DNA from: Gammaproteobacteria bacterium
Lineage (GTDB): Bacteria > Pseudomonadota > Gammaproteobacteria > Chromatiales > Chromatiaceae
Reading direction: 5' to 3'
Length of the DNA: 64,000 bases
Assembly: GCA_015490795.1 (NCBI GenBank)
Contig: WFXD01000005.1
Span: 4,690 to 68,689 of the forward strand
Shown: one piece after another, positions 12,908 to 55,273 of the stretch
Layout: the number at the start of each line of letters is the position of its first letter
Numbering within the stretch: the first letter of the stretch is position 1
Program-made: the position numbers and the translations under genes
The notes under the pieces: generated by a model
The model's input: the letters and a program-made list of their open reading frames with translations, nothing else
What the model was told of the DNA's origin: nothing
Databases searched by the model: none

Positions 12908-12910
12908 ACC

Positions 12911-33004: not shown

Positions 33005-33062
33005 CCATACATATTAGGCTACTGTAACAACAGTTGTGTCTGATGGCAGAGAGGGAGGCTCG

Positions 33063-34766: not shown

Positions 34767-35272
34767 TGAGAGTGATTCAATGGTTGATCTGCATCTTTTT
34801 AATGGTTGCTGCCGCACCACTGCTTGCGGAACCGGGGCATATCATTCGCCCCAGTGACCTGATGGATGAACCCTACCGGGATGCGGCCCCGCTGGCTGAG
34901 CTAAAGGCGGGCGACCCTGTAGAGATCATCAAGCGCAAGGGTGGTTGGCTGAAGGTCAAAAGTGCAGGCCGGACGGGTTGGGTCAGGATGTCTAAAATCC
35001 GCAAAGGCAAAGCGACTGCGAAACCGGCCTCAGGCAGTGAGGCAAAGGGGGTGTTGGATCTGGCCAGTGGCCGTTCGGGCACCGGCAATGTGGTTTCAGC
35101 CACCGGGGTAAGAGGGCTGAGCGAAGCAGAGCTGAAAGAGGCAAAATTCAGCGCCAGCGAGGTGGACAAGCTGGAATCCTTTACCGTTTCCGGGCAGCAG
35201 GCAGCCCGCTTTGCGCAAGCAGAAAAGCTGGTTGCAAAAGAGCTTGAATTTATCCCGGCGGCAGAGAGATAG
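34766..35272 (+). CDS. Secreted bacterial SH3-domain protein
   Basis: TAATG overlap with the CHASE2 gene. Signal peptide; LKAGDPVEIIKRKGGWLKVKSAGRTGWVRMS is an SH3b-like fold motif. Confidence 0.7.
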   Translation: MRVIQWLICIFLMVAAAPLLAEPGHIIRPSDLMDEPYRDAAPLAELKAGDPVEIIKRKGGWLKVKSAGRTGWVRMSKIRKGKATAKPASGSEAKGVLDLASGRSGTGNVVSATGVRGLSEAELKEAKFSASEVDKLESFTVSGQQAARFAQAEKLVAKELEFIPAAER

Positions 35273-35282
35273 GAGAGAGGCC

Positions 35283-36356
35283 ATGAGATTTAAACTGCTG
35301 TTAGCCCTGTTGCTGATAACAGGGACACCGCCTGCATACGCCTTTGATTTTGGCGGGTTGATCAAAGAGGCCACAAAGGAGCCTGAGCCGGTTTCGGGCA
35401 AAACCCCGCAGCAGGGCCAGCAGCCGGGTTTGATGGGGCTGTTGGGAGGAACTCCGGTAGAGGAGGAGATCGCCATTGGGCGTGAAATTGCAGGCCGGCT
35501 ACTGGGCGCTGCCCCGCTGGTAGATGACAAGCAGCTGCAACGTTACATCAACCATGTCGGTGCCTGGGTGGCCAGACAGAGTGGCCGCAATGACCTCAAA
35601 TGGTATTTTGGGGTGATTGAGTCTGATGACATCAACGCCTTTGCAGCGCCAGGCGGTTATATTCTGGTCACCAAAGGGCTGTATAAAAGGCTGCGTAACG
35701 AGGCGGAGCTGGCAGGTGTTCTGGCGCATGAGATCGGCCATGTTATCAAGCAACACCACCTGAAGATATTGAAGCAGGGGCAGTTGATTGATATGGGTGG
35801 CAGCCTTCTGAAACAGAAGGTGGGCGGTGGTGGAAAAGGCCAGGCGATTGGCAGGATGATCGGCAGTGGTGCTGAAATTCTGGCGCGGGGCCTGGATAAA
35901 AATGCCGAATATGAGGCGGATCGCATCGGTGTGGTACTGGCTGCAAGAGCAGGATATGACGCCTATGCCCTCCCCTCAGTGCTACAGGAGATCGGCCACC
36001 TGAGCGCGGATGACAACACGGTTTCGCTGCTGTTTAAAACGCATCCACACCCGGAAAAAAGGCTGCTGGAGCTGGGTGATGCCATGGATGCCCATGCCGA
36101 CCGATTCGAAGATGGCAAAATAGTTGCAGACAGATTTTACCGATTGGGGAAGGAGAAAAACCCCAGTGATGCGCGGCTACCCGGCTTTTTGTTGAGCGAT
36201 TTTTTTCAGGTGCCATACAGCGATAGCCATCCATGCGACATTGAGCATCAATGCACCCATTGCGCCCATGAACAGGGTGTTGATGCCAACCAGAAACGCC
36301 CCCGCCAGGTTGTATATATGGTAGGCAGCCGAGGTGTTGGTAAACCTCCCTTTTGA
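35283..36356 (+). CDS. Periplasmic M48-family zinc metallopeptidase
   Basis: Start MRFKLLLALLLITGTPPAYA with GGAGAG upstream. HEIGH zinc motif, EYEADRIG third ligand region. The last 60 codons or so overlap an antisense membrane-protein gene. Confidence 0.85.
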   Translation: MRFKLLLALLLITGTPPAYAFDFGGLIKEATKEPEPVSGKTPQQGQQPGLMGLLGGTPVEEEIAIGREIAGRLLGAAPLVDDKQLQRYINHVGAWVARQSGRNDLKWYFGVIESDDINAFAAPGGYILVTKGLYKRLRNEAELAGVLAHEIGHVIKQHHLKILKQGQLIDMGGSLLKQKVGGGGKGQAIGRMIGSGAEILARGLDKNAEYEADRIGVVLAARAGYDAYALPSVLQEIGHLSADDNTVSLLFKTHPHPEKRLLELGDAMDAHADRFEDGKIVADRFYRLGKEKNPSDARLPGFLLSDFFQVPYSDSHPCDIEHQCTHCAHEQGVDANQKRPRQVVYMVGSRGVGKPPF

Positions 36357-36764: not shown

Positions 36765-36946
36765 TTTTCACGATTCATGTCAGCGGATACAGACCTGTTC
36801 GCCCCTTGTGGAACTTGAGTGGGCTGCTCCAGAAATATTCCCGGTTTGGTGTAGTATACTGCGCGATTAACGGTTTGTATCCGCAGTAGGTACAACTGAT
36901 TTTTTTTAGGTTCATCTGATTAGTGTCCCTGTGGAGGTTATATAGC

Positions 36947-37648
36947 GTGCGTTGGATCAATAGAGGCGTCGTGCTGCTGCTGGGGTTTGTCATCACCACA
37001 GCAAGCTGGGGCCTTGAGTGGAACCAGGAGGGTGGAGAAAAAGAGCGGGCATTGACACTAAAACCCAACTACAACCGCGGGCTGGAGTTCTACCGCATCT
37101 GTGCAAAATGCCACAACAAGCAAGGTTGGGGGCGGCGTGATGGGTCATTTCCACAGATATCGGGTCAGCACTACAATGTCCTGATCAAGCAGCTTGTGGA
37201 TATGCGCGAAAACAACCGCGAAAATCCCTCCATGCAGCACTTTGTGATGCCTGAAGTGCTGGGCGATGCCCAGGCGCTGGCCGATCTCTCCTACTACATC
37301 TCCAAACTGCCCATGACCCCGGCAAACGGAAAGGGGCGGGGCAAGAACCTGGAGCGTGGTCAGGATATCTACATGGAGAAGTGCATTGGCTGTCATGGTG
37401 ACAACGGTGAAGGTGATAATGAGAAATTTTTCCCGCGCATCCATGGGCAGCACTACCGCTATATGCTGCGCCAGTTTAAATGGATAAGGGCCGGGGAGCG
37501 GCTCAATGCACATCCGGATATGCAGATTCGGATCGAGGACTTTACGCTAGAGGACTCCAAGGCAGTGGTTGACTATATTTCACGTCTGAAACCGCCAAAA
37601 GAGATTGTGGCGCCCTCAAGAAAGTGGAGAAACCCTGATTTTGAATAG
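36947..37648 (+). CDS. Dihaem cytochrome c4-type protein
   Basis: GGAGG 9 nt upstream of GTG 36947 (alternative start 36923). CAKCH and CIGCH motifs, each followed by a PxIxGQHY c4-type segment (FPQISGQHY, FPRIHGQHY). Confidence 0.85.
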   Translation: MRWINRGVVLLLGFVITTASWGLEWNQEGGEKERALTLKPNYNRGLEFYRICAKCHNKQGWGRRDGSFPQISGQHYNVLIKQLVDMRENNRENPSMQHFVMPEVLGDAQALADLSYYISKLPMTPANGKGRGKNLERGQDIYMEKCIGCHGDNGEGDNEKFFPRIHGQHYRYMLRQFKWIRAGERLNAHPDMQIRIEDFTLEDSKAVVDYISRLKPPKEIVAPSRKWRNPDFE

Positions 37649-37908
37649 CGCGCCTGAAACGCTTGCCATGTATGGACAAAGGTAGTGGATGAGCGCAAAA
37701 GCGGACGGTTTTGTTTCAGCCATATTGCACTCCCCGGTTTTGGCATATAAACACTTATAAAGTTTAGGTTATACTTGCCAGCTCCCAAGACGAGACAAAA
37801 ACCAGGTTGTGACGGGGCTGTAGTCCATGGGCAGGTTTGGATATTATACCAGCCGTGCAGGCGCCCTCTGAAATTTGCTGCGACGCTCTCTTAACCACCA
37901 AGAAGACA

Positions 37909-39063
37909 ATGAAGACCCAGATTGCCAACTGTTTGAAAATGAGCCTGAAAGCGCTCTCTTTTGCGCTGTTTTTGCCTCTCAATGGTGCCGTGGCAGAGGA
38001 GGCTGCCTGGCCCATGTTCCTGCTCAACCCGCAGCACGATGCCCAGCCTGCCTCCACTCTTGCGCCGCCACTGGAGCTGCTGTGGGAGTTTGACGCAGGC
38101 GATCTGCTCTACGCCTCTCCCGCTGTCGCCTCTGGCAAGGTCTTTATCGGTTCGCTCTCCGGTGCATTCTATGCGGTGGATCAAGAGACAGGCGAGCCAG
38201 TGTGGAGTTTTGAAACCGCTGACGAGATCACATCCTCCGCTGCTGTTGACAATGGCAAGGTCTACTTTGGTGGCAAGGATGGCACCCTCTACTGTCTGGA
38301 TGCCGCCACAGGTGAACTGATCTGGGAGTACAAGACCCAGGGCAAAATCGTCAACTCCCCTGCGCTGGTGGATGGCGTGGTCTACTTTGGCTCGAATGAT
38401 ATGAGCATCTACGCCATTAGCGCAGAAGATGGCGGCTTTATCTGGTCGACCCCTCTGGCTGAAAAACCCACCAGCTCACGAGGCATTTACGCCTCCCCCA
38501 CCATTGGCCACGGGCTGGTCTATGTAACGCGCAAGGCCTTCAAGGTCTATGCGCTGGATATCAGGGATGGACATATCGTATGGGAGTTCAGAACCCGCTC
38601 AGCCAACTATGCCTCGCCTGTGCTCAGCGGTAACACCCTCTACATTGGTGGCTATGATCGCAACCTGTATGCGCTGGATGCCAAGAGCGGAAAAACGAAA
38701 TGGCAGGCCACCGTAGATGAGTGGATCTATGCCTCGCCCATCCCCTTTCAGGATGGCGTACTGGTGAGCGCCAAAGATGGCGTGCTGACCTCATTCGATA
38801 GCGCCACGGGCAAGCTGCGCTGGTCGCAGGATCTGCGCGCCCCCATCAGCTCGACCCCGGCAGTAACCCGAAGCGGCATCGCCTTTGTGGCCAACGAATA
38901 TGGTGAACTGACTGCAATTGACGTGAAAAATGGCCAGCCTGTTTGGCAGGAGACACTGCCCGATGACGGGTTCCACTCCTCCCCGGCCATCGTGGGCGAC
39001 CGACTCTATATTGGCACCATGAATGGCTACCTGATGGCCTGGGAGCAGAGACAGATACCATGA
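37909..39063 (+). CDS. Secreted PQQ-like (BamB-like) beta-propeller repeat protein
   Basis: Signal peptide. Repeats of the type GKVFIGSLSGAFYAVDQETGEPVWSF / GKVYFGGKDGTLYCLDAATGELIWEY / NTLYIGGYDRNLYALDAKSGKTKWQ. Confidence 0.85.
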   Translation: MKTQIANCLKMSLKALSFALFLPLNGAVAEEAAWPMFLLNPQHDAQPASTLAPPLELLWEFDAGDLLYASPAVASGKVFIGSLSGAFYAVDQETGEPVWSFETADEITSSAAVDNGKVYFGGKDGTLYCLDAATGELIWEYKTQGKIVNSPALVDGVVYFGSNDMSIYAISAEDGGFIWSTPLAEKPTSSRGIYASPTIGHGLVYVTRKAFKVYALDIRDGHIVWEFRTRSANYASPVLSGNTLYIGGYDRNLYALDAKSGKTKWQATVDEWIYASPIPFQDGVLVSAKDGVLTSFDSATGKLRWSQDLRAPISSTPAVTRSGIAFVANEYGELTAIDVKNGQPVWQETLPDDGFHSSPAIVGDRLYIGTMNGYLMAWEQRQIP

Positions 39064-40013
39064 ACAGTAGCGTGTTGAGCTTTTTGCTGGGGCTGTTGCT
39101 CACCTTTGGTGCGGCGGCACAGGTAGTGGCCGAAGAGGATCTGAATATGAATCCTCACTGGTCCAAAACCAAAGACAAGTGCCTTGCATGCCACGAACAT
39201 ATTCCAGAGAGAGGCGGCCAGTTAAATCTCCGTTATGACGGCGATATAAACAGGCTCTGCAACCACTGCCACTCCGAGATATCCAAAGACAAGTATATCC
39301 ATGCCAGTGGCATGATTGCCCCGCAGACGATGGTGGACAAGATGCCAGAGGAGTTTCGCTCCGGGCTGGATGATGAGGGCCGCATCACCTGTGCAGTCTG
39401 CCATGACATGACCTACCAGTGCCTCAGTGAAGAGTTCGGGCGCAAAAAAGAGAACATCCTGTTCCACCGGGGGGCACCCTTTGAAAAACGAACCGACCTC
39501 TGTTACAACTGCCATGAGCCCTCTGCATATAAAAAGATGAATCCGCATGACCAGATTAACGATGAGGGAGAGCTGGACACCGACATCTGCACCTACTGCC
39601 ATGCCATCCTGCCTGACCGCCGAAAGGCTAAAAGCATTGCAGATGTTGAATTCAAATTTGATAATTTCGACATGCTCTGTCTACGCTGCCATACAGATGA
39701 TGCCTATGCCGTGGGCTGTGTGATTGGCTATGAAAAAGATGGCAGCCCCAGATACCATGCAGGGCGGCCCGATGAAGGGATGTCGGGCCGGATTGAGGCA
39801 AACCAGGGGGGAGCCATCCTGCCGCTGGATCTTGTCACGGGCAAAATCTTCTGCGGCACCTGTCACAACCCGCATGAGCTTGGGGTGCAGCGGCGCAGCG
39901 AAGCTGATGCGGGCGCCGACTCCCACAAGCGTTTGAGAATCAGCCAGATAAACTCGGGGATCTGCCTTGGCTGCCATGATGCCAAAGAGATCAAACAGTT
40001 CCACCTGCCATAG
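39060..40013 (+). CDS. Octahaem c-type cytochrome, secreted
   Basis: ATGA overlap with the propeller gene. Signal peptide. Eight CXXCH: CLACH, CNHCH, CAVCH, CYNCH, CTYCH, CLRCH, CGTCH, CLGCH. Confidence 0.9.
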   Translation: MNSSVLSFLLGLLLTFGAAAQVVAEEDLNMNPHWSKTKDKCLACHEHIPERGGQLNLRYDGDINRLCNHCHSEISKDKYIHASGMIAPQTMVDKMPEEFRSGLDDEGRITCAVCHDMTYQCLSEEFGRKKENILFHRGAPFEKRTDLCYNCHEPSAYKKMNPHDQINDEGELDTDICTYCHAILPDRRKAKSIADVEFKFDNFDMLCLRCHTDDAYAVGCVIGYEKDGSPRYHAGRPDEGMSGRIEANQGGAILPLDLVTGKIFCGTCHNPHELGVQRRSEADAGADSHKRLRISQINSGICLGCHDAKEIKQFHLP

Positions 40014-40020
40014 ACCGTCC

Positions 40021-40998
40021 ATGATACAGCGTTTTACCGCCCCTCTCCGGCCCTGCTTCCAGCAGAGTGGATGGCTGCTTGTGCTGGCTGCCCTGCTGCT
40101 CCCTGCCCAGCCGATTGCCGCTGCCCCGGATCTGCTCCCTGTCGAGCAGATCCGGGTCATTGAGGGTGGCGACAAACTTGGCCTGCGCCAGCCGAGCAGC
40201 GTACGGATCACCTCAGACAACCGCACCCTGGTGCTGGACGGCGTCTCAAACCGGGTTGTCATCTACAACCACGAAGGAAAATTCCAGGGCAGCTTTGGCA
40301 AAGGTGGCAGCGCAAAAGCGGAGCTCAGCCGCCCGCTGGGGATGACCCTCGATGCCAGGGATCATGTTTATATCGCCGACTCCGGCAATGCCCGTATCCA
40401 GATCTACAGCCCAGATGGCAAACATCTCAACCAGATCAAACTTCCCCAAAGCAAGCAGCAAAAAAGGCCCGACCCCACCGACCTGGCCATCGACAACCAG
40501 CGCCAACTGCTCTACGTGGTCGATAATGAAAACCACCAGGTGCTCGTCTATAGCCTGAAAGAGCGAAAATTCATCCGCACTGTGGGGGGGATGAGCCATC
40601 AGGAAGACGGCTTCCGCTGGCCCTTCTCCCTCTACATCGACGCCACCGGCAGGCTCTACATCGTCGATGTCATCAACACCCGGGTGCGCACCATCCTGCC
40701 TGAAAAGGGGTTTGGGTTTGGCCATGATATTGGCCGCTGGGGGGTCGAGAAGGGTGAGCTGTTCCGCCCCAAAGGGGTGGCAGTCGATGCCAGTGGGCAT
40801 ATCTTTATTAGCGACTCCTACCTCGGCGTCATCCAGATGTTCGACAAAAAAGGGAGATTCCAGGCCGTGCTCAGCGATGGTCAGGGCAAGATAAAGCACT
40901 TTACCACCCCGGCCCGGCTCTATTTTGACAACAACGGCCTCCTCTATGTGGTGGAGATGTTCGCCAACCGTATCAGCGTCTACCGTATCAAATCATGA
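40021..40998 (+). CDS. Secreted NHL-repeat six-bladed beta-propeller protein
   Basis: Signal peptide LLVLAALLLPAQPIAAAP. NHL-like blades (LSRPLGMTLDARDHVYIADSGNARIQIYSPDGK, FRPKGVAVDASGHIFISDSYLGVIQMFDKKG, and others). Confidence 0.85.
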   Translation: MIQRFTAPLRPCFQQSGWLLVLAALLLPAQPIAAAPDLLPVEQIRVIEGGDKLGLRQPSSVRITSDNRTLVLDGVSNRVVIYNHEGKFQGSFGKGGSAKAELSRPLGMTLDARDHVYIADSGNARIQIYSPDGKHLNQIKLPQSKQQKRPDPTDLAIDNQRQLLYVVDNENHQVLVYSLKERKFIRTVGGMSHQEDGFRWPFSLYIDATGRLYIVDVINTRVRTILPEKGFGFGHDIGRWGVEKGELFRPKGVAVDASGHIFISDSYLGVIQMFDKKGRFQAVLSDGQGKIKHFTTPARLYFDNNGLLYVVEMFANRISVYRIKS

Positions 40999-43900
40999 AG
41001 CAGTTGAGACTGGTTGGGCTTTTCCTGTTGCTGCCCCTGCTTTTGGCATCCACAGCAGCTGTTGCGGCCCCTTCAGGCCAGCAGCCCAATGCCTCGAAAG
41101 AGTGCGCCATGTGCCACCTGCGCTGGGTCGATGATTTTGATGGCAGCCATGCCGCAAACTACCTGCTCGATTTTACTGAAGAGAAGGTCGTAGCCACAGA
41201 GATGATGTGCTACAGCTGCCATGACGGCTCGATCGTGGACTCCCGCTTGCGGGTGTGGGAGACCAGCCGGCACAAGGCAGGGACAGACCCATCCAGCAAA
41301 ATCACGATTCCCGAGACCTTTCCGCTTGATCCACAAGGGCGGCTGACCTGTGCAACCTGCCATAGCGCACACGGTGTCGACTCAACGACCGACATCGGAT
41401 CGACCATCTTTTTGCGAGTGCCCAATGTCAACTCATCCATGTGCCGCCAGTGTCACAGTGACAAGGATGACGGCGTGGCAGCGGGCAAGCATCCGGTCGA
41501 TATCGTTTTTGATGAATTCCCACAAAAGATCCTCGATTTTGGCGGCAAGGCGGGCAAAGACAAGAGCGGCAAAAAGAGGACGGTTATCTGTGAAAGTTGT
41601 CACAATCCGCATGGCAGCACCAACGACCACTTTCTGGTAATCCCGAACAGCCAGAAGGGGGTAACCCACTCCAGCCTGTGTGAAACCTGTCACGGCGTCT
41701 CGCCGGATATTAAAAGTGCGGATGAGCTGCGGCGGTTTTCGCACCCGGTGGATGTGGATATTATCAAAGAGGTCAAACTGCCAGAGAGGTGGGATAACGG
41801 CGAAAGACCACTGCTGGCCGAAGGCCGGGTGATTAACTGCCGCACCTGTCACTCACCGCACAACGGCACGCGGGATAACCACCTGCTGGTGTCGAGCAAC
41901 AAACAGAGCAAACTCTGCCTGACCTGTCATACCTCGAAGAAAAAGCTGCTGAACACCAAACATGACCTGTCGACCAGCTTCCCCGATGAGAGGAACTCGG
42001 CAGGCCGGAGCGCAGCCGAGGCCGGCCCCTGCTTCTCCTGCCATTTTATGCACAAAGGAGAGGGGCCAAAGATGTGGGCGCGGGATATCGAGGGCGAAAG
42101 CATTGAGGATCTGTGCAAAAGCTGCCACGACAAAGAGAGGGTCGCAGAGCATGCCCTGACCGGCGCGCGCAGCCATCCGGTGGAGGTGCCCCCTTCCAGA
42201 AATATGGATGTGGGCAATCTGCCGCTCTATAGCGAACAGGGAGAGAGGCGCGCCGATGGTAACGTGACCTGCGCCTCCTGTCACGATCCTCATGTCTGGT
42301 CGGCATTGTCGGACGACCGGGGAGACAAAGGGGTAGAGGGCGACGGCACAAACAGCTTTCTGCGCCAGACGGCCGCACCACCCAGCGGTAGCCTCTGCCA
42401 AAGCTGTCACCGGGACAAAAAGCGCATCGCAAAAACCAAGCATGATCTGAATGTTACAGCGCCGAACGAAAAAAATGCCAGGCAGCAGACGCCAAAAGAG
42501 TCCGGGGTCTGTGGTGCATGCCATACAGCACATAACGCCAAGGCGGGCAAGCTCTGGAACAGGCCGCTGGGTGCAGGCGAGGATTATATCGAGCGCCTCT
42601 GCACCTCATGCCATGCCAAAGCGGGCATGGCCGCAGACAAGACAACGGGCAAGAGAAGCCACCCTGTTGGGGTCAAGCCAAAAGAGAGTGGCGACCTGCC
42701 GCTGTTTACGGCAGATGGGAGAAAGAGCGCCCGGGGCAATCTCTCTTGTGGCACCTGCCATGACCCTCATCGGTGGGCTGCGGGCAGTGATGAGCGTGGT
42801 GACAGCAAGGCAGAGGGTGATGGCAGCAACAGCTTCCTGAGAAAAACCAGCTCGGTCGAGAGCGAGCTCTGCCGCACCTGCCATGCCGAGAAATCGACCC
42901 TGCTGGGCAGCAAGCATGATATGCACGTCACCTTCCCCAAGGCCCGCAACAATCAGGCTCAAACCATTGGGCAGAGTGGCGTCTGCGGCATCTGCCATGT
43001 GCCACACAATGCAGATGGCAAACGGCTCTGGGCGCTGCGGCCACACAAGGTGGAAGACCCCTACGAAACATTGTGTCTCTCATGCCATGCAAAAGGCGGA
43101 ATGGCTGAAAAGAAGACGACAGGCTCCATTACCCATCCGCTGGGCAAGCAGCCCAATATGCAGCCACAGTTCCGAGGCAAGCTGCCGCTGTTTGACAAAG
43201 AGGGCAAACGGGATGACGAGGCGGGCACGGTCTCTTGCCCCACCTGCCACAACGTACACCAATGGGACCCCCGGGTTACCGAAGAGCAGACATCTCGCGG
43301 CAAAGGGCGGGAAGGCGACCGTAACAACAGCTTCCTGCGGGTCCCCTATGATGAAGATGCCACCCTCTGTGCAGCCTGCCATAAAGATAATGCACTGGTT
43401 ATTGATACAGACCATGATTTGCGTATCACCTCCCCGAACACTGTCAACCTGAGTCACGAAACAGTGGACGATGCAGGTGTCTGTAGCGCCTGCCACCTGG
43501 TGCACAATGCATGGGGTAACCTCCTGTGGGCACGAGGGGTTGGTGTGGGCAGCAGCCGGAATCAGGCGTTATGCACAGGCTGTCATGCCCGGCGTAAATC
43601 AGCGAGCAGAAAGGTGATCGGTGAGCCGACCCACCCCATGAAACGGATCGCAGATGCGCGGCCCACACTGCGCAAGGAGGCGCGCAGATTCTACAGAAAA
43701 AAACGTGGAGAAGAGGCAGCGCCAAAGGATGAAGCGGTGAAGCTGCCGCTCTTCACAAAAAATGGCGAGCAGTCAACAAATGGCGATATGGCCTGCTCAA
43801 CCTGTCACAACGTACACCGTTGGGATCCTGAAAAGCCAGAGAGAGGGCCAGGCAAAAAAACAGAAGGTGATGCAGGCAACAGCTTTCTGCGCAAATCCAA

Positions 43901-44672
43901 CCTGGATGGCCCAAAGCTGTGCGTGACCTGCCATGCCAGCAAGGGCTATGTTGTGGGCACAGATCATGACCTCTCCATAACCAACCCCGACGCCAAAAAC
44001 GGCCTGAACAAGACTGTAGCAGAGAGTGGCGTCTGTAGTCCGTGCCATGTCCCGCATGGTGCGAAAGGTGAGGGCTATCTGCTATGGGCAAGAGAAGAGG
44101 GGGAGGGGAGCAATCTGCATCAGGAACGGATCTGCCTGAGTTGCCATGAAAAAGGCGGGCCGGGAGAGAAGAAGATCGTTGAGCACTTTTCTCATCCGCA
44201 ATCAATAATAGTTCCAGAGCTGCACCGTCCGGGCAGCAGCAAATATGCGCCGGTTTACAATGTAGCGGGGCAAAAGGTAAATGCGGGGCTGATTGCATGC
44301 CCAACCTGCCACAACCCGCACCAATGGACCTCAAGCAGAAAGAGCACGGGCCCGGGGAAAGAGGTGGAAGGCAACAACAGAAACAGCTTTCTGCGGTTTA
44401 AAAGCTCAGGAAATATCTGTAGAAATTGCCACGGTATCGACAGCTTGCAGCGCTATAAATATTTTCACATGGATGATATCAGAGCCTCAGACCGAGCCGC
44501 CCGGGGCAGAGCGTCGGCAGGCGCGGCAACCAAACCGCCAGCAAAAGAGAGCCTGCCGGCAAGCAGGCCTGTGATGCAGGGGAGGGGCGAGCGCAGAGCC
44601 CCCAGCATGTCAGAGCGCCGTCGGGCGCTTATGGAGCGACGTTATCAAAAAGAGATGGGCACAGATCCTTAG
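40995..44672 (+). CDS. Giant secreted multihaem c-type cytochrome (28 CXXCH motifs, 1225 aa)
   Basis: ATGA overlap with the NHL gene. Signal peptide. I counted 28 CXXCH: 7 N-terminal, five tandem 4-haem modules each ending EGDxxNSFLR, and 1 more. Basic, apparently disordered C-terminal tail. Confidence 0.9.
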   Translation: MKQLRLVGLFLLLPLLLASTAAVAAPSGQQPNASKECAMCHLRWVDDFDGSHAANYLLDFTEEKVVATEMMCYSCHDGSIVDSRLRVWETSRHKAGTDPSSKITIPETFPLDPQGRLTCATCHSAHGVDSTTDIGSTIFLRVPNVNSSMCRQCHSDKDDGVAAGKHPVDIVFDEFPQKILDFGGKAGKDKSGKKRTVICESCHNPHGSTNDHFLVIPNSQKGVTHSSLCETCHGVSPDIKSADELRRFSHPVDVDIIKEVKLPERWDNGERPLLAEGRVINCRTCHSPHNGTRDNHLLVSSNKQSKLCLTCHTSKKKLLNTKHDLSTSFPDERNSAGRSAAEAGPCFSCHFMHKGEGPKMWARDIEGESIEDLCKSCHDKERVAEHALTGARSHPVEVPPSRNMDVGNLPLYSEQGERRADGNVTCASCHDPHVWSALSDDRGDKGVEGDGTNSFLRQTAAPPSGSLCQSCHRDKKRIAKTKHDLNVTAPNEKNARQQTPKESGVCGACHTAHNAKAGKLWNRPLGAGEDYIERLCTSCHAKAGMAADKTTGKRSHPVGVKPKESGDLPLFTADGRKSARGNLSCGTCHDPHRWAAGSDERGDSKAEGDGSNSFLRKTSSVESELCRTCHAEKSTLLGSKHDMHVTFPKARNNQAQTIGQSGVCGICHVPHNADGKRLWALRPHKVEDPYETLCLSCHAKGGMAEKKTTGSITHPLGKQPNMQPQFRGKLPLFDKEGKRDDEAGTVSCPTCHNVHQWDPRVTEEQTSRGKGREGDRNNSFLRVPYDEDATLCAACHKDNALVIDTDHDLRITSPNTVNLSHETVDDAGVCSACHLVHNAWGNLLWARGVGVGSSRNQALCTGCHARRKSASRKVIGEPTHPMKRIADARPTLRKEARRFYRKKRGEEAAPKDEAVKLPLFTKNGEQSTNGDMACSTCHNVHRWDPEKPERGPGKKTEGDAGNSFLRKSNLDGPKLCVTCHASKGYVVGTDHDLSITNPDAKNGLNKTVAESGVCSPCHVPHGAKGEGYLLWAREEGEGSNLHQERICLSCHEKGGPGEKKIVEHFSHPQSIIVPELHRPGSSKYAPVYNVAGQKVNAGLIACPTCHNPHQWTSSRKSTGPGKEVEGNNRNSFLRFKSSGNICRNCHGIDSLQRYKYFHMDDIRASDRAARGRASAGAATKPPAKESLPASRPVMQGRGERRAPSMSERRRALMERRYQKEMGTDP

Positions 44673-44774: not shown

Positions 44775-46733
44775 ATGCCTGATCATATCCCAGCCATTGA
44801 GGTGATCCAGGGGCCATCGGTTACCGCAGCCCCTCAGCGCAGCCTGCATGGGCGCAGGTCGCGGCGCCTCTGGGTATTCCTGATCGTATTTCTCCTGTGT
44901 GCCGCCGCCGGGCTGTTTTATACCTACTCCCGGCCTGCGGTCTATCGTACTACAGCCGCCCTGTTAACGGTCGCCATGCCAGCGGTGGACCAGCAGGGCG
45001 CAGCAGCAGACATCCAGCATGTCGCTATCCAGAGCCAGCTTTTGCTGGGCCAGCCCCTGTTGCAAGAGGTGCTGGAGAGGCTGGAGCAGGGAGGCGGCTT
45101 TCGATATATCAACAGCGTTGCCCAGCTACAGGGGATGCTCTCCGTTGAGCCGCTTAGCGATACCAATATTGTCAATTTGAGTGCCGAAGGGCCGATCCCG
45201 GAGGCGCTGCCCGCCGTGGTAAACACCTGGGTGAATGTCTATCTCGAAATGCGCGCCCGGAAGATCAAAGAGGCCACCGGCACAACGACCCAGGCCCTGA
45301 AGGAGCAGCATCAGGCCCTTGCGGCCAAGGTTGAGACCAAGCGCGCCGAACTGGACAGGTTCCGTCAGGAGCACGACATCCTAAGCATGGGGCGCGATGA
45401 AAACCAGGTTCTTGCCCGGCTGAAGGGGCTGACCCAGGCGCTCAACGCCGCCAGTGAAGAGGAGGTAAAGGCAAAGGCGGCGCTGGAGACCATTCATAAA
45501 GCCATCGCCAAGGGCAAACCTGTGGTTCCCAGAGATGAGCAGAGAAGCCTGGCGGCGCTGGAGTCCCGCGCCCAGTTGCTCAAAGAGAAGCTGACGGCGC
45601 TGCAACGCCGTTATACCGACGCCTTTATCGCTATCGACCCCAATCTCAAGACCATTCCCAAACAGCTGAAGGAGATTCAACAGGAGATCAAAACGAAGGT
45701 TGAATATGGCCGGAAGACGGTGCTGGCCGATGTGGAGCAGAAATGGGCGATTGCACGGCAATCGGTAGCAGAGTTGCAGGCCCAGCTGAAGGGGCATAAA
45801 AGCAAGGCAACCCTCTTTACCGCGCGTTTTGCCGAACATGAGGCGCTACAGGAGGATCTGGCCCGCCTGGAAGAGCTCTACCGCACCACCGAGGAGCGCT
45901 TGGTGGCGATCGAGGTGCAGAATCGGCAGAAGTTCCCGCAGGTCAATATACTGGAGTATGCCCAGCTGCCTGCTCACCCGGTGCGGCCGCAATATACGCG
46001 TGATGCTGCTATCGCCCTGGTGGCATCGCTGCTGACAGCGCTGTTTGCCGTCTGGCTGGTCGAGTTTCTTTTGCGCAAGGAGAGAAGGGATGAACCCCAG
46101 ACCCTGGCAGGCCTGCACCTCTACACCGGGCAGCAGCGACCAGCCATAGACCCACCGGCTCCAGTCGCCGCCATCAATGGGCAAGCGCATACTGCACTGC
46201 CACAGCCGGCAGGCACAGAGCTGGATATGGAGGAGATCCGGCAGCTGTTCGAGCAATCAGACACCATTGGACAACAGCTGATTGCACTGCTGCTGAGCGG
46301 ACTGACCCTGGAAGAGGTGGCCAGGATAGAGCGATGCTGTTTCGACTTCAAAGAGAGCAGGCTTCGGGTGCCTGGATATCAGGAGCGGGCCATCACCCTG
46401 GCGCCATCGGTTTTGAAGCTCTTTGCCGAAATTGAACCTGCCCCTGCCAATGAAGAGCTGGAAATCGCGACAACCTCCACAGCGGAGCTAGTGGCAAAAA
46501 TCACACTGGTGGCGGTAGATGCCGGACTCAGCGAACCGGAACGGATAAATGCTCAATCCCTCCGGCACAGCTATCTCACCTATCTGGTGCGGCAGGGGAT
46601 AAAGTTGTCTGAAGTGAACAAAGTTGTGGGTGGCATATCAGCAACGCAGCTTGCCGCCTATGCACAGCTGTCGCCGGATGGCCCCGGCAAACCCCTGGAA
46701 GAGATCGACCTCGTCTACCCGTTGTTCAGATGA
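44775..46733 (+). CDS. Polysaccharide co-polymerase (Wzz/GumC-like) membrane protein fused to a degenerate tyrosine-recombinase-like C-terminal domain
   Basis: TM1 LWVFLIVFLLCAAAGLF, a long periplasmic coiled-coil region, then TM2 AAIALVASLLTALFAVWLVEFLL. Cytoplasmic tail has LLLSGLTLEEV...RAITLAP...SLRHSYLTYLVRQGIKLSEVNKVVGGISATQLAAYAQL. Confidence 0.7.
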   Translation: MPDHIPAIEVIQGPSVTAAPQRSLHGRRSRRLWVFLIVFLLCAAAGLFYTYSRPAVYRTTAALLTVAMPAVDQQGAAADIQHVAIQSQLLLGQPLLQEVLERLEQGGGFRYINSVAQLQGMLSVEPLSDTNIVNLSAEGPIPEALPAVVNTWVNVYLEMRARKIKEATGTTTQALKEQHQALAAKVETKRAELDRFRQEHDILSMGRDENQVLARLKGLTQALNAASEEEVKAKAALETIHKAIAKGKPVVPRDEQRSLAALESRAQLLKEKLTALQRRYTDAFIAIDPNLKTIPKQLKEIQQEIKTKVEYGRKTVLADVEQKWAIARQSVAELQAQLKGHKSKATLFTARFAEHEALQEDLARLEELYRTTEERLVAIEVQNRQKFPQVNILEYAQLPAHPVRPQYTRDAAIALVASLLTALFAVWLVEFLLRKERRDEPQTLAGLHLYTGQQRPAIDPPAPVAAINGQAHTALPQPAGTELDMEEIRQLFEQSDTIGQQLIALLLSGLTLEEVARIERCCFDFKESRLRVPGYQERAITLAPSVLKLFAEIEPAPANEELEIATTSTAELVAKITLVAVDAGLSEPERINAQSLRHSYLTYLVRQGIKLSEVNKVVGGISATQLAAYAQLSPDGPGKPLEEIDLVYPLFR

Positions 46734-46824
46734 AAGCGTATATAGAAAACCAGAAGCCACATCAATCCGGCCAAGCTGTTGACCGCCCTCTACAACCCAT
46801 CTCCCCAGTGAGGAGGATGCGTGA

Positions 46825-47679
46825 TCAGCGCTTCTGTCGCCCTCTCCCCGGTCTGCCTGCCGGTTTTTGTCTCCGGCCTTTGCTGGGTGCTGGCCTCTCC
46901 GTACGGTGCGCTCTCTTCTCGTCCTTTAAGCCTGCGGCCTGCAAGAGCTGCTTTAGCTCGTCGGGCTCCAGCGGGCGGGATCTCCCGGCAAACAGCCGGT
47001 TGCCCATGACAATGGGGCCAAACCTTACCCGGATTAGACGGCTGACAGTGGCCCCTGTTGCCTCCCACAGGCGTCGAACCTCGCGCTTGCGCCCCTCCAT
47101 GATGACCACATGAAACCAGCGGTTGGCTCCAGTTCCGCCACTTTCGACAATATGCTCAAAGCGGGCCGGGCCATCCTCCAGTTCAATGCCGTTGACCATG
47201 CTTTTGAGCATATCTTCAGTCACCCTGCCCAGGATACGCACCGCATACTCCCGTTCAATGAGCTGTGATGGATGCATCAATCGGTTGGCCAGTTCGCCAT
47301 CGGTGGTAAACAGCAGCAGCCCGGCACTGTTGATATCCAGACGCCCCACAGCGATCCAGCGTCCGCTTTTCAGCCGTGGCAGGCGTGAAAAGACGGTTGG
47401 CCTCCCCTCCGGGTCAGCGCGTGTCACCAGCTCACCTTCCGGCTTGTTATAGATGATGACCTGCCGCTCCGGGGCGCTCAGGCGGGCAGGCTTTAGCGGC
47501 TTGTCATCCAGCTTTATCTGTTCGTCACCACTGATGCGGCAACCCAGGCTGGCCAGCTGGCCATTGACCTTGATGCGCCCTGCTTTTATCCAGGTTTCAA
47601 TCTCTCGGCGAGAGCCAAGGCCGGCGTTGGCCAGCACCTTTTGCAGCCGTTCACCTTGTGGCGGAGTGGGGTTTGTCAC
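46825..47679 (-). CDS. rluB: 23S rRNA pseudouridine synthase B
   Basis: S4 domain (ERLQKVLANAGLGSRREIE); GRLDINSAGLLLFT catalytic motif; Arg/Lys-rich tail. Confidence 0.92.
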   Translation of the reverse strand: MTNPTPPQGERLQKVLANAGLGSRREIETWIKAGRIKVNGQLASLGCRISGDEQIKLDDKPLKPARLSAPERQVIIYNKPEGELVTRADPEGRPTVFSRLPRLKSGRWIAVGRLDINSAGLLLFTTDGELANRLMHPSQLIEREYAVRILGRVTEDMLKSMVNGIELEDGPARFEHIVESGGTGANRWFHVVIMEGRKREVRRLWEATGATVSRLIRVRFGPIVMGNRLFAGRSRPLEPDELKQLLQAAGLKDEKRAHRTERPAPSKGRRQKPAGRPGRGRQKR

Positions 47680-48331: not shown

Positions 48332-49162
48332 TCAGGTGGAAGATGAGGCAGCTTTAACATGAATCGGGCCGTAGGGTTCTGTCTGAACCAGTTCGAGCAG
48401 TGCGCCTTTTATCAGCTCTAATATCGCCAGAAAGGTGACGACGACCCCGGCGCGCCCCTCTGTATAATCGAACAGCCGGGTGAACGCTGTGAAGGTGTCG
48501 CTGTTCACTCGATCCAGCACGATGGACATTCTTTCTCGTACCGAAAGTGGCTCCATTTTGATGTGCAGGTTACTAAACATATCTGCACGCTGAAGCACAT
48601 CTTTAAAGGAGAGCAGCAGCTCCTGCATGGATAGATCGGGCTGCCGCTTTTCTATAATACGGTCTGGCGCCTCAATCTCCAATGGGAAGGTATCGCGCCC
48701 CTGCTGTGGCAGGGCATCAAGATCTTCAGCCGCCTGCTTGTAGCGCTCATACTCCTGCAACCGCCGGATCAGTTCGGCGCGCGGGTCGTGTTCGTCACTC
48801 TCATCACTGCTCACCCGTGGCAGCAGCATGCGGGATTTGATCTCGGCCAGCATGGCGGCCATAAGCAGGTACTCTCCAGCCAGCTCCAGGCGCAGCTCTT
48901 TCATCAGCTCCACATACTCCATGTATTGCGTGGTGATCTGGGCAACCGGGATATTGAGAATATCCAGGTTTTGACGCTTGATCAGGTAGAGCAGCAGATC
49001 CAGTGGCCCTTCGAAGGCGTCGAGAAAAACCTCCAGCGCGTCGGGCGGGATGTAGAGATCCCTGGGCATGGTCGAGAGAACCTCTCCCTGCACCATGGCA
49101 AAGGGCATCTCTGCCTGCTGTGGGTGAGGGGCGCCAATCCCGGTAATCTCTCGCTGCTCCAT
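48332..49162 (-). CDS. scpA: Segregation and condensation protein A (kleisin)
   Basis: FEGPLDLLLYLIKRQNLDILNIPVAQIT is the typical ScpA N-terminus. Confidence 0.9.
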   Translation of the reverse strand: MEQREITGIGAPHPQQAEMPFAMVQGEVLSTMPRDLYIPPDALEVFLDAFEGPLDLLLYLIKRQNLDILNIPVAQITTQYMEYVELMKELRLELAGEYLLMAAMLAEIKSRMLLPRVSSDESDEHDPRAELIRRLQEYERYKQAAEDLDALPQQGRDTFPLEIEAPDRIIEKRQPDLSMQELLLSFKDVLQRADMFSNLHIKMEPLSVRERMSIVLDRVNSDTFTAFTRLFDYTEGRAGVVVTFLAILELIKGALLELVQTEPYGPIHVKAASSST

Positions 49163-49175
49163 GAGCTGTATTATC

Positions 49176-50396
49176 CTACCGGTAGTAGTTCAGCGACATG
49201 GCGTGCCGCACCTCATCCAGCGTCTCTTTTGCCAGATCACGCGCCGCCTCGCAGCCCTCTGCAATGATGCTGCGCACCAGTTCAGGCTGTTCAATATACT
49301 CCTGCGCCCGCTCCTGAATTGGTTTAAGCTCGCGCAGAACGGCATCGATAACCGGCTGTTTGCATTCGACGCAGCCAATGCCCGCAGAGCGGCAGCCTGT
49401 CTGCACCCAGTTTTTGATATCGTCATCCGAATAGACCTCATGCCACTGCCAGACGGGGCATTTTGCAGGGTCGCCCGGATCATTCCGGCGTATCCGGTTG
49501 GTATCTGTGGGCATGGTTCGCAGGGTCTGCTCTATACCTTCGGGCGTCTCTCGCAGTGCAATGGTATTGCCGTAGGATTTGGACATCTTCTGGCCATCCA
49601 GCCCCGGCATTTTGGATGCCTTGGTCAGCAGCGGCTGAGGCTCTGGCAATATGATACGGCCACCGCCCTCCAGGTAGCCGAACAGGCGCTCGCGATCACC
49701 CATGTTGATGTTCTGCTGGTTCTCCAGCAGCGCCCGTGCGGCGGCCAGCGCCTCGTGGTCGCCCTGCTCCTGATAGGCCTTGCGATACTGTTCGTAGAGT
49801 TTGGCTGTCTTCTTTCCCATCTTTTTTATCGCCTGGGTCGCCTTCTCTTCAAACCCGGTTTCACGCCCGTAGAGGTGATTGAACCGCCGCGCCACTTCGC
49901 GGGTCAGCTCGACGTGCGCTACCTGATCTTCACCCACAGGAACCTGCCCTGCCTTGTAGATCAGGATGTCGGCGCTTTGCAGCAGCGGGTATCCCAGGAA
50001 CCCGTAGGTGGCGAGATCCCGCTCCTTGAGCTTCTCCTGCTGGTCTTTGTAGCTTGGCACCCGCTCCAGCCAGCCCAGCGGGGTGATCATGGAGAGCAGC
50101 AGATGCAGCTCTGCATGCTCGGGAATGCGGGATTGAATAAACAGCCTCGCCTCACCGGGGTTGACGCCTGCGGCAAGCCAGTCGATCACCATGTCCCACA
50201 CGCTCTCGGAGATGATGCCGGGGTCATCGTAGTGGGTGGTCAGCGCATGCCAGTCTGCTACGAAGAAGTAGCACTCGTATTCATGTTGAAGTTCAACCCA
50301 GTTTTCCAGCACCCCGTGGTAGTGTCCCAGATGGAGCTTGCCGGTAGGGCGCATGCCGGAGAGTACACGGGAGTGTTGCGCAGGAACAGGAGTCAA
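49176..50396 (-). CDS. trpS: Tryptophan--tRNA ligase
   Basis: GKLHLGHY (HIGH-type) and KMSKS motifs. Proposed TTG start at 50396 with GAGGAA 6 nt upstream. The longer tracked ORF would overlap the upstream gene. Confidence 0.92.
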   Translation of the reverse strand: MTPVPAQHSRVLSGMRPTGKLHLGHYHGVLENWVELQHEYECYFFVADWHALTTHYDDPGIISESVWDMVIDWLAAGVNPGEARLFIQSRIPEHAELHLLLSMITPLGWLERVPSYKDQQEKLKERDLATYGFLGYPLLQSADILIYKAGQVPVGEDQVAHVELTREVARRFNHLYGRETGFEEKATQAIKKMGKKTAKLYEQYRKAYQEQGDHEALAAARALLENQQNINMGDRERLFGYLEGGGRIILPEPQPLLTKASKMPGLDGQKMSKSYGNTIALRETPEGIEQTLRTMPTDTNRIRRNDPGDPAKCPVWQWHEVYSDDDIKNWVQTGCRSAGIGCVECKQPVIDAVLRELKPIQERAQEYIEQPELVRSIIAEGCEAARDLAKETLDEVRHAMSLNYYR

Positions 50397-50437
50397 TGGT
50401 GTTTCCTCTGAAGTTTGATAAACGGTGTGCAGGCGCT

Positions 50438-51097
50438 CTATTGTAAGCCAACCAGCGATACGATGATGTATTGAAAAGTAGAGAGCAGCGGGCCAATGAT
50501 ACTGCCAAGCATGCCCGTTGCCAGCAGGCCAACGATAATGAAGAGTCCCCAAGGCTCAAGGCGGGCGTAGGGCACTGCCAGCCTGGCAGGCAGCAGTGAG
50601 GCTACAATGCGCCCCCCATCGAGCGGCAGGATAGGCAGCAGGTTCAGTACCAGCAGTATGCTGTTGATCATGATGCCGGCTGTCCCCATGTAGATCAGGG
50701 GATAGGCTACCCAGGGCAGACTCTCCAGCAGCGAGACCCCTGCCTGCATGCCCACCCCCCATAGCAGCGCCATGATCAGGTTGGAGGCGGGGCCGGCAAT
50801 CGCCACCAGCGCCATATCCCTGCGGGGGTTATTCAGATTGCGCCAATCTACCGGAACGGGTTTGGCCCAGCCAAACAGGAACCCGGTCAGCAGATACATC
50901 CCCAGTGGCACTATCACCGTACCCAGAGGGTCGATATGCTGGATGGGATTGAGCGTAACCCGCCCCTGCTGTTTGGCCGTCGGGTCACCCAGTTTGTTTG
51001 CAACCCAGCCGTGGGCGGCTTCGTGCACGGTAATGGCAAACAGCACGGGCAGTATCAAAACGACGATCTGCTGAATGGTATTTAATTCATTCATCAC
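50438..51097 (-). CDS. Site-2 protease (M50) family membrane metallopeptidase
   Basis: HEAAHG zinc motif in TM1. Multi-TM, 219 aa. Confidence 0.85.
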   Translation of the reverse strand: MMNELNTIQQIVVLILPVLFAITVHEAAHGWVANKLGDPTAKQQGRVTLNPIQHIDPLGTVIVPLGMYLLTGFLFGWAKPVPVDWRNLNNPRRDMALVAIAGPASNLIMALLWGVGMQAGVSLLESLPWVAYPLIYMGTAGIMINSILLVLNLLPILPLDGGRIVASLLPARLAVPYARLEPWGLFIIVGLLATGMLGSIIGPLLSTFQYIIVSLVGLQ

Positions 51098-52858: not shown

Positions 52859-53824
<966 letters not shown>

Positions 53825-53843
53825 GGCCTTTGCAGATACCAGA

Positions 53844-54767
53844 ATGGCAGGCACAGATCGCGTCCAGGTTAACCAATCCACCCTGATCGGACTGCAAAAG
53901 GCAGGGGCTTCACTGCCGCTCAGGGCGGTAAAGGTTCTGGGGCGCATGACGGGCAGCTACCTCTCCAGATTTAAAGGCCGGGGGATGGAGTTCGATGAGG
54001 CCCGCCCCTATCAGCCCGGTGATGATGCACGCAATCTCGACTGGAAGGTGACAGCGCGCACTGGCAAACCCTTCACCAAACTCTTTAGAGAGGAGCGTGA
54101 GCGCTCCATTCTGCTCTGGGTGGACTACCGTGCGCCCATGCACTTTGCCACTCGTGGCCTCTTCAAATCGGTGCTGGCGGCCAGGACGGCGGCACTGCTG
54201 GCCTGGAGCGCCATCCAGCACGGTGACCGTTTGGGCGGGCTGATCTTCTCGGAGGGCAACCATCTGGAACTGCGGCCCCAGCAGGGCAAGCATGCGGTGC
54301 TGAACTTTATCCGCAAGCTCACGGATGCATCGCCACAGAGCGCCCCCAAAAATGGCAATGGCGCCCAGCAGCAGGTGGCTCAACGGGCGCTGGCCCGCCT
54401 GCGCCGGGTCACCCGTCCGGGCAGCCTGCTCTTTTTGCTGAGCGACTTCCGCTCGCTGGATGAGTCTGCAGAGGCGCACCTGATACACCTGGCGCGCCAC
54501 AACGATGTTGTGCTGATCTTTATTCACGACCATCTGGAGAGGGCGCTGCCCCCGTCCGGCAACTACCGCCTCACGGATGGCCGGCGCACCATCACCATCG
54601 ACACCGGCAGCCGCGCACTAAAAAAGCGGTATACCGAGCGCTTCCAGACCCATGAGGCCTGGCTGCGTGATCTCTGCCGGCGTGCAGGCATCCACCTGCT
54701 GAGCTGCGCCACGGACCAGGATCCGTACAGCATGCTGCAAGCAGGCCTTGGCCGGAGGCGCAGGTGA
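53844..54767 (+). CDS. DUF58-family (VWA-like) protein, MoxR partner
   Basis: GMEFDEARPYQPGDDARNLDWKVTAR is the DUF58 signature. Alternative TTG start at 53811. Confidence 0.85.
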   Translation: MAGTDRVQVNQSTLIGLQKAGASLPLRAVKVLGRMTGSYLSRFKGRGMEFDEARPYQPGDDARNLDWKVTARTGKPFTKLFREERERSILLWVDYRAPMHFATRGLFKSVLAARTAALLAWSAIQHGDRLGGLIFSEGNHLELRPQQGKHAVLNFIRKLTDASPQSAPKNGNGAQQQVAQRALARLRRVTRPGSLLFLLSDFRSLDESAEAHLIHLARHNDVVLIFIHDHLERALPPSGNYRLTDGRRTITIDTGSRALKKRYTERFQTHEAWLRDLCRRAGIHLLSCATDQDPYSMLQAGLGRRRR

Positions 54768-55273
54768 GCCCGGCCACACAGCAGCCTCTGCCGCTCAGGG
54801 ATATCCACCTGCCAGAGCCGGTCTCCTGGTGGCCACTGGCACCGGGCTGGTGGGGGCTGGCTGTTTTGATCCTGCTGCTGGTTGGGCTGCTCTTTTTGGG
54901 TCGCGCCCTCTACCGCCGCGGCCAGCTGCGCCGGGAGGCGCGCCAGGCGCTACAGGCGATAGAGAGCCGATACAAAATCCACCAAAATGATCAGCAGCTG
55001 GCAGCCGACCTCTCCACACTGCTGCGGCGGGTGGCGCTCAGCTGTTCACCCCGGGCAGAGGTTGCCGGCCTGACCGGTGATGCCTGGCTGGATTTTCTGG
55101 ATCGCGGCGTGGCAGGCAGCCGTTTCCACAAGGCATTCTCCACCGGCGTTGGCCGCGCACTGGTTGAGGCCCCCTACAGGGCTGCTGTAAAGATAGAGGG
55201 CGCTGCCCTGCTCAAGCTGTGTGCCGCATGGGTTGAGGCCCTGCCCCATAAACCGGAGGGCTCCCAGGCATGA
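54764..55273 (+). CDS. DUF4381-like single-TM protein of the Bat operon
   Basis: GTGA overlap with the DUF58 gene; GGAGG upstream. IHLPEPVSWWPLAPGWW followed by a TM helix. Confidence 0.7.
   Translation: MSPATQQPLPLRDIHLPEPVSWWPLAPGWWGLAVLILLLVGLLFLGRALYRRGQLRREARQALQAIESRYKIHQNDQQLAADLSTLLRRVALSCSPRAEVAGLTGDAWLDFLDRGVAGSRFHKAFSTGVGRALVEAPYRAAVKIEGAALLKLCAAWVEALPHKPEGSQA

Follow-up and report, generated by a model that had tools for sequence, protein, structure and literature searches.

The locus and the parts of the gene

The window analysed here is a stretch of 64,000 nucleotides from a gammaproteobacterium of the Chromatiaceae (GenBank assembly GCA_015490795.1, contig WFXD01000005.1, positions 4,690 to 68,689 of the forward strand). 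Within it, an open reading frame (ORF) with an ATG start, at 44775..46733 on the forward strand, encodes a protein of 652 amino acids that joins two modules: an N-terminal part of the polysaccharide co-polymerase (PCP) type, and a C-terminal domain with the fold of a tyrosine-recombinase catalytic domain, which has lost much of its catalytic set and occupies the place of the bacterial tyrosine kinase (BY-kinase) of other PCPs. We hold this identity of the protein, and its status as a pseudoenzyme, with high confidence. Both halves had been proposed in a preliminary description read from the sequence by eye, and the profile and structure searches reported below bear them out. The gene is divided as follows, TM denoting a transmembrane helix:

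44775..46733, forward strand: whole gene, PCP-like membrane protein with a C-terminal pseudo-tyrosine-recombinase domain (ORF list, translation, full-length homologues)
44871..44930, forward strand: TM1, residues 33-52 (Kyte-Doolittle peak; AlphaFold2 helix 25-52)
44775..44870, forward strand: short cytoplasmic N-tail, residues 1-32, with basic RRSRR at its end (sequence, net charge +3)
44931..46004, forward strand: periplasmic PCP domain, residues 53-410 (family matches, AlphaFold2, Foldseek)
46005..46073, forward strand: TM2, residues 411-433, followed by basic RKERR (hydropathy; AlphaFold2 helix 407-434)
46074..46208, forward strand: cytoplasmic linker, residues 434-478, predicted to be disordered and poorly conserved (model confidence, substitution rates, variable alignment columns)
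46209..46730, forward strand: pseudo-tyrosine-recombinase catalytic domain, residues 479-652, 174 amino acids (sequence, profile, model, Foldseek)

Just two hydrophobic segments are seen in the hydropathy profile of the protein, at about residues 33-52 and 411-433, and the basic clusters RRSRR before TM1 and RKERRDE after TM2 mark the predicted cytoplasmic sides. The protein thus has the PCP layout, with two TM helices around a large periplasmic domain and both termini in the cytoplasm, and the AlphaFold2 helices agree with it. The preliminary description had this order of parts right; it placed the start of the cytoplasmic part at about residue 455, however, and we place it at about 434. The full-length model was built with 52 homologues as input and has a mean predicted local distance difference test score (pLDDT) of 81, falling below 50 in the N-tail (residues 1-25) and in the linker (437-478). 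The C-terminal 187 residues were also modelled separately, with a pLDDT of 89 and a predicted TM-score (pTM) of 0.85.

The N-terminal module is a divergent polysaccharide co-polymerase

The best family match of the N-terminal module in NCBIfam is TIGR03007, the XrtA/PEP-CTERM chain-length determinant (E 1.7e-23), which covers residues 30-432 and profile positions 12-438 of 498; EpsF, Wzc and the ExoP family match more weakly in the same collection. These PCP matches (TIGR03007, TIGR03017, TIGR01005) are significant, yet every one lies under its curated cut-off. TIGR03007 scores 82.6 bits against a cut-off of 278.85, and the two Pfam families Wzz and GNVR likewise stay below threshold (20.6 bits against 25.5, and 15.5 bits against 27.7). 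Scores of this kind make the N-terminal module a divergent member of the PCP class; since the TIGR03007 score falls so far under its cut-off, the protein is a paralogue of that family and not an equivalog.

In the AlphaFold2 model, the periplasmic part consists of a small alpha/beta base and very long helices, such as residues 289-386, at a pLDDT of about 85-95; this is the base with long helical hairpin of the PCPs. Foldseek, run with the full model, places Wzc (9r64) at the top with an E-value of 2.8e-9, followed by WzzE (1.1e-5) and KpsE (2.1e-5); for residues 1-435, the closest structure is that of Wzc. Immediately N-terminal of TM2 lies the stretch LPAHPVRPQYTRD, a candidate for the Pro-rich motif that PCPs have at this place. 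In this Pro-rich stretch (LPAHPVRPQY), P402 is near-invariant and P405 invariant among the aligned relatives.

The C-terminal domain has the tyrosine-recombinase fold

The domain that follows the linker was matched to tyrosine recombinases by profile, by profile alignment and by structure. Pfam Phage_integrase (PF00589) matches residues 483-632 with its profile positions 3-168 (of 172), at an E-value of 8.6e-5 when the isolated domain is searched, at 22.8 bits and thus under the gathering score of 27.1; among the 120 relatives listed, the precomputed PF00589 assignment is present for two only (P0055 and P0057). The NCBIfam XerA model matches the C-terminal domain at 6.8e-9. A profile built from 28 C-terminal domains of the family, searched against the sequences of the Protein Data Bank (PDB), finds IntI4 (2.4e-11), XerA (1.1e-9), P2 Int (1e-8) and XerD (5.5e-7), and hhalign gives a probability of 93% for the alignment of the domain with E. 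coli XerD. The domain model, submitted to Foldseek as the preliminary description had advised, returned tyrosine recombinases for all of its top 50 matches, the best being XerA (E 9e-8, TM-score 0.70). Considering these profile, hhalign and Foldseek matches together, the homology to the recombinase catalytic domain is secure. The folded part measures about 174 residues (479-652), so the recombinase-like domain first described holds, while its given length of about 190 does not.

Two domains that might have been expected here were looked for as well. There is no match to the core-binding domain (SAM-like; Phage_int_SAM in Pfam), and only the disordered linker and TM2 precede the catalytic domain. 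Nor do Pfam and NCBIfam give any kinase or AAA_31/CbiA match at the C-terminus, where a PCP-2a protein would have its BY-kinase.

Loss of the catalytic residues

The residue equivalences were taken from the hhalign alignment to E. coli XerD and a phmmer alignment to XerA (4a8e), with a codon-by-codon check. The motifs SGLT, QSLRH, VGG and QLAAYAQL, which had been picked out by eye, are all present and map to the active-site positions assigned to them:

46305-46307, forward strand: T511, equivalent of Arg-I, within SGLT; lost
46380-46382, forward strand: Q536, equivalent of the beta-hairpin Lys; lost
46386-46388, forward strand: R538; invariant in 52 aligned relatives
46554-46556, forward strand: Q594, equivalent of His-II, within QSLRH; lost
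46563-46568, forward strand: R597, equivalent of Arg-II, with H598; kept
46632-46634, forward strand: G620, equivalent of His-III, within VGG; lost
46659-46661, forward strand: Y629, equivalent of the nucleophile Tyr, within QLAAYAQL; kept

These losses are shared across the family. In the 52 aligned relatives, the Arg-I column holds T (31) or S (16) and never R, and the His-II column reads E, A or Q; R597 is found in 45 and Y629 in 48 of them. In a larger set of 269 relatives, the Arg-I column has T in 111, S in 100 and R in 6, and the complete catalytic set, made up of Arg-I, Lys, His-II, Arg-II, His/Trp-III and Tyr, is seen in none of these sequences. The loss of three of these residues (Arg-I, the beta-hairpin Lys, His-II) is family-wide, and His-III is variable. 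The conserved positions extend into the C-terminal tail, where P634, I644 and P649 are retained among the aligned relatives.

The fusion is a widespread family under purifying selection

A search of 5.8 billion proteins found over 200 relatives; the best 120 of those listed have lengths of about 580-680 amino acids, are nearly all full-length and show 40-99% identity. The full-length homologues of the window protein have 40-85% identity to it. An exhaustive search with the C-domain profile gave 246 cluster representatives at E<=1e-30; those of full length are all about 640-700 amino acids long, always with the recombinase-like domain at the C-terminus. Among these representatives, no stand-alone pseudo-recombinase domain and no other kind of N-terminus was found, and the short ones align collinearly as N-truncated fragments. 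When one genome per species was scanned with the full-length family alignment as query, the same fusion was present in 193 species. The best 80 of them belong to Sedimenticola/Polarisedimenticolaceae, Methylococcales and Nitrosomonadaceae, with isolates included; isolate genera with the fusion are Nitrosomonas, Nitrosospira, Nitrosovibrio, Methylotuvimicrobium and Methylicorpusculum.

The C-terminal domain is under purifying selection and is not decaying. Against three relatives, the ratio of nonsynonymous to synonymous substitution rates (dN/dS) is 0.25-0.34 for the C-terminal domain; it is lower in the periplasmic part (0.11-0.15) and higher in the linker (0.44-0.81). The inactivation of the recombinase domain, first put forward for one protein, holds across the family.

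Database entries for members of the family exist already and bear the names 'integrase', 'Phage integrase', 'GumC family protein' and 'uncharacterized protein involved in exopolysaccharide biosynthesis'. The statement in the preliminary description that no PCP-integrase fusion was known therefore stands for the literature, as our full-text searches found no paper describing a PCP/recombinase fusion, and fails for the databases. A part in anti-phage defence was considered and rejected, as PADLOC returned weak LmuB coiled-coil matches only.

The homologue of Methylotuvimicrobium buryatense 5G, a methanotroph in culture (locus L087, 10001-11980), is covered by RNA on the sense strand to a depth of about 10-70 in three RNA-seq runs, the strand being assigned from the usual dUTP library convention. 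These runs were chosen by a species label shared with runs containing the L087 sequence and apparently come from a related strain: about half of the reads match at 95-99%, many reads fit partially, and the depth is uneven. Just upstream of the homologue, the intergenic segment 9809-10009 of L087 shows an RNA depth of about 140-270 on both strands, far above its flanks, and many reads continue into unrelated sequence at 9858 and 9985. This points either to a small element that is repeated or mobile, or to the reference and the RNA runs coming from different strains.

Genomic neighbourhood

In the window, the gene starts 102 bp downstream of a gene for a 1225-residue cytochrome, on the same strand, and is convergent with housekeeping genes on its other side (pseudouridine synthase, ScpB, ScpA, class-I tRNA synthetase). 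The cytochrome gene is the last of a cluster of five:

36923-37648, forward strand: dihaem cytochrome c
37837-39063, forward strand: PQQ/BamB-like beta-propeller protein
39060-40013, forward strand: cytochrome with 8 CXXCH motifs
39967-40998, forward strand: NHL-repeat protein
40995-44672, forward strand: 1225-residue cytochrome with 28 CXXCH motifs and MtrC/MtrF-like domains

This cluster (36923-44672) is conserved at 81-91% identity in the locus of one close relative (L009), and no porin gene was identified. In combining NHL repeats with multihaem cytochromes, it is reminiscent of the Uet cluster (PMC10734462). The fusion protein itself was also considered as the inner-membrane component of a PCC3 cluster; this was rejected, as that component has about 300 amino acids, five TM helices and haem-b motifs (PMC5566968).

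For the family as a whole, neighbourhoods were compared over 84 loci from different species, and six loci were inspected individually. Wzx/Wzy, an outer-membrane polysaccharide exporter (OPX) or glycosyltransferases, the usual company of a PCP gene, are not the characteristic neighbours. ORF clustering over the 84 loci yielded no conserved operon partner; any one neighbour family is shared by 14 of them at most, and the few neighbours that recur are metabolic genes reflecting lineage-level synteny.

Two settings stand out. The first is locus L008, whose homologue (61% identity) lies directly after a gene for the XrtA-associated ATPase (TIGR03015), with a gap of 66 bp. Divergent from this TIGR03015-like ATPase gene, positions 330-7934 of L008 hold a complete XrtA/PEP-CTERM exopolysaccharide (EPS) core: a TIGR03027 exporter, a TIGR03007 chain-length determinant (505 bits), a TIGR03018 autokinase and a TIGR03016 outer-membrane protein. 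No other of the loci has XrtA EPS genes near the homologue. The ATPase of L008 is 499 amino acids long, against 269 model positions, and has an extra C-terminal part. The second setting is found in the Methylobacter lineage, where a GT2 glycosyltransferase of 229-244 amino acids is encoded by the next gene downstream in 9 of the 84 loci; in 7 of these 9, a fatty-acid hydroxylase-family gene comes after it. Examples of the setting are 12020-13587 in Methylobacter L023 and 11994-12683 in Methylotuvimicrobium L087.

Proposed function

We propose that the protein is an orphan PCP paralogue that would act in the envelope glycan pathway with a dead, acidic recombinase domain as its cytoplasmic module; taken as a whole, we regard this reading as evenly poised. 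It is a stand-alone inner-membrane protein of the PCP class, with the XrtA/PEP-CTERM chain-length determinant as its closest named relative, and a flexible linker, about 45 residues long, connects it to the recombinase domain that stands in the place of the BY-kinase. Such a protein would probably oligomerise as other PCPs do and may take part in the assembly or export of an envelope or extracellular glycan, together with the products of genes encoded elsewhere in the genome. The part in glycan export is, in our judgement, finely balanced, and the XrtA context of L008 and the GT2 gene downstream in 9 loci are hints that point to glycans.

As to the mechanism, PCPs act as oligomeric cages and the cytoplasmic domains of Wzc form rings, while tyrosine recombinases form cyclic oligomers by swapping their C-terminal segment. 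From these properties, we infer, tentatively, that the dead fold may serve protein-protein contacts in the cytoplasm, as a ring for oligomerisation or as an adaptor for docking, rather than act as a DNA enzyme; an assembly or adaptor mechanism of this kind is possible and somewhat doubtful. The module may use the exchange of its C-terminal segment as real recombinases do, and a residual anion-binding pocket formed by R538, R597, H598 and Y629 may be used too. This pocket and the tail positions P634, I644 and P649 are the candidate functional surfaces.

Several observations weigh against the reading proposed here. The Wzz, GNVR and TIGR03007 scores of the N-terminal module all lie below threshold. 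There is no conserved operon partner in the 84 loci, so that the glycan role rests on the homology of the N-terminal module and on a few lineage-specific neighbourhoods. Moreover, the retention of Arg-II, H598, Y629 and the invariant R538 leaves room for a residual function with a ligand or a nucleic acid, and the net charge, used below, is a crude proxy for DNA binding, as a locally basic surface could still bind it.

This last point leads to the alternative that fares best, in which the C-terminal domain, tethered to the membrane, binds DNA and either anchors a chromosomal site to the envelope or regulates transcription on a periplasmic signal. The fold comes from enzymes that bind DNA, the four residues just named survive, and a bacterial precedent exists in TnsF of the Tn6022-like Tn7 transposons, an inactivated tyrosine-recombinase derivative that acts as a DNA target selector (PMC10293859). 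However, the domain of the window protein is acidic, with a net charge of -10 and an isoelectric point (pI) of 4.65 (family medians, -7 and 5.06), whereas the catalytic domains of E. coli XerD (+2, pI 9.0) and lambda Int (+2, pI 8.4) are basic; the latter two served for comparison after a regex search for genuine recombinases within the family's loci found none. The core-binding domain is missing, whereas TnsF retains such domains (PMC10293859), and two contacts to the scissile phosphate, Arg-I and the beta-hairpin Lys, are lost family-wide. Because the domain is acidic, has no core-binding domain and lacks these two phosphate-contacting residues, DNA binding is doubtful. Neighbourhoods also differ among the 84 loci, with no conserved adjacent DNA site or regulated operon apparent. 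We therefore consider a DNA-binding module, an option that the preliminary description had left beside a regulatory one, unlikely.

A more specific form of the oligomerisation idea can also be imagined. In this form, the C-terminal domain would be an ATP-independent analogue of the Wzc kinase ring, made cyclic by C-terminal segment exchange of the recombinase kind; a phosphorylated ligand would sit in the pocket (R538, R597, H598, Y629), or a separate BY-kinase would phosphorylate Y629, and the assembly of the periplasmic cage would thereby be switched. We regard this as quite a speculative proposal with a low probability of being right. If it were true, the tyrosine-recombinase fold would have a new use, and the export of envelope polysaccharides in methanotrophs and ammonia oxidisers would be regulated in a new manner.

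A coupling to the upstream cytochromes, in which an envelope polymer would be organised for the display of the 28-haem cytochrome, had been suggested in the preliminary description from the position of the gene. It draws on the 102-bp distance and the shared strand in the window, and this arrangement is retained in the two closest relatives, L009 (85% identity) and L010 (83%). Outside the window, these two are the only cases: cytochrome genes are nearby in 3 of the 84 loci, window included, all at >=83% identity. The Sedimenticola homologue, at 72% identity, stands among unrelated genes without the cytochrome cluster. The homologues of Methylicorpusculum, Nitrosomonas and Methylothermus do likewise, and all those of Methylococcales and Nitrosomonadaceae are in unrelated housekeeping contexts. 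Moreover, no such component is listed for the published cytochrome-porin clusters that were compared, PCC3, PCC4 and Uet (PMC5566968, PMC10734462). The link to cytochrome display is thus not upheld, and we consider it improbable.

The names 'integrase' and 'Phage integrase', given to many members by NCBI and UniRef, and the weak Pfam and NCBIfam recombinase matches would make the protein an active enzyme, a site-specific recombinase or the integrase of a mobile element. This is very improbable: the window protein lacks Arg-I, Lys, His-II and His-III, the full set occurs in none of the 269 relatives, a core-binding domain is absent, the first 430 residues form a PCP module embedded in the membrane, the neighbours are housekeeping genes without mobile-element features, and PADLOC gave weak coiled-coil noise only. 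An assembly chimaera or local fusion artefact of two genes, for which nothing speaks beyond the unusual domain pair, has a negligible probability and is excluded, because the stretch is wholly contained in four independent hydrothermal-vent metagenome runs and more than 200 full-length homologues, isolate genomes among them, have the same architecture.

Comparison with known systems and significance

The proposed PCP paralogue shares its layout, with N-terminus inside, TM1, a helical periplasmic domain, TM2 and a cytoplasmic C-terminal domain, with Wzc and the PCP-2a proteins (E. coli K30 Wzc; ExoP family, TIGR01005). These, however, carry a Walker-type BY-kinase with a Tyr cluster where our protein has the tyrosine-recombinase catalytic-domain fold, and the gene described here lies outside any operon of the wza-wzb-wzc type. 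The XrtA/PEP-CTERM system, which provides the best N-terminal family match (TIGR03007), has its autokinase as a separate protein (TIGR03018), and in L008 the true TIGR03007 protein and the kinase are encoded by genes separate from the fusion gene. With the Xer-type recombinases (XerA of archaea, 4a8e/5hxy; XerD, 1a0p; the integron integrase IntI4, 2a3v), the C-terminal domain shares the fold, the box I and box II motifs, Arg-II with the His next to it, and the Tyr; it differs in that Arg-I is T or S, the Lys is lost, His-II is E, A or Q, His-III is variable, and the domain is acidic and not basic, tethered to the membrane and without a core-binding domain. TnsF is likewise a catalysis-dead tyrosine-recombinase derivative recruited elsewhere; it differs in being soluble, with DNA-binding CB-like domains and zinc fingers, and in acting on DNA within a transposon (PMC10293859), whereas the protein described here is encoded by a single chromosomal gene and is membrane-anchored with an acidic domain.

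A PCP paralogue in which a dead recombinase fold replaces the kinase was not found described in the literature that we searched, and it offers a clean bacterial case of this fold recruited as a pseudoenzyme. It also exposes a recurring mis-annotation, as members of the family are neither integrases nor markers of mobile elements. The hosts are ammonia-oxidising Nitrosomonadaceae, type I methanotrophs, and sulfur oxidisers of vents and sediments. PCP proteins and BY-kinases govern the production of capsules and exopolysaccharides, hence biofilm formation and aggregation; in these host groups, aggregation and EPS bear on wastewater treatment, methane mitigation and symbiosis.

Other genes in the window

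Upstream of the cytochrome cluster, the genes at 31208-36356 all lie on the forward strand; their products are an ATPase of the T2SSE/MshE type that has an MshEN domain, two proteins with a CHASE2 and an SH3 domain respectively, and an M48 peptidase. The genes for the last three products named recur upstream of the cytochrome cluster in another locus of the set (L006). Further downstream, 52859-59814 on the forward strand holds a Bat/aerotolerance-like operon with a MoxR AAA ATPase, DUF58 and DUF4381 proteins, two VWA proteins (one with TPR) and BatD.

Two forward-strand ORFs are probably spurious shadow ORFs. One, at 46730-47113, lies opposite the pseudouridine synthase gene. The other, at 49161-50411, encodes 416 amino acids without a Pfam match and runs antisense almost wholly inside the class-I (Trp/Tyr) tRNA-synthetase gene (49176-50552, reverse strand). 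On the reverse strand, 28853-30508 encodes a protein of 551 amino acids whose sole match is a weak one to PilZ (E 0.003) at residues 396-465; it may be a receptor for cyclic di-GMP.

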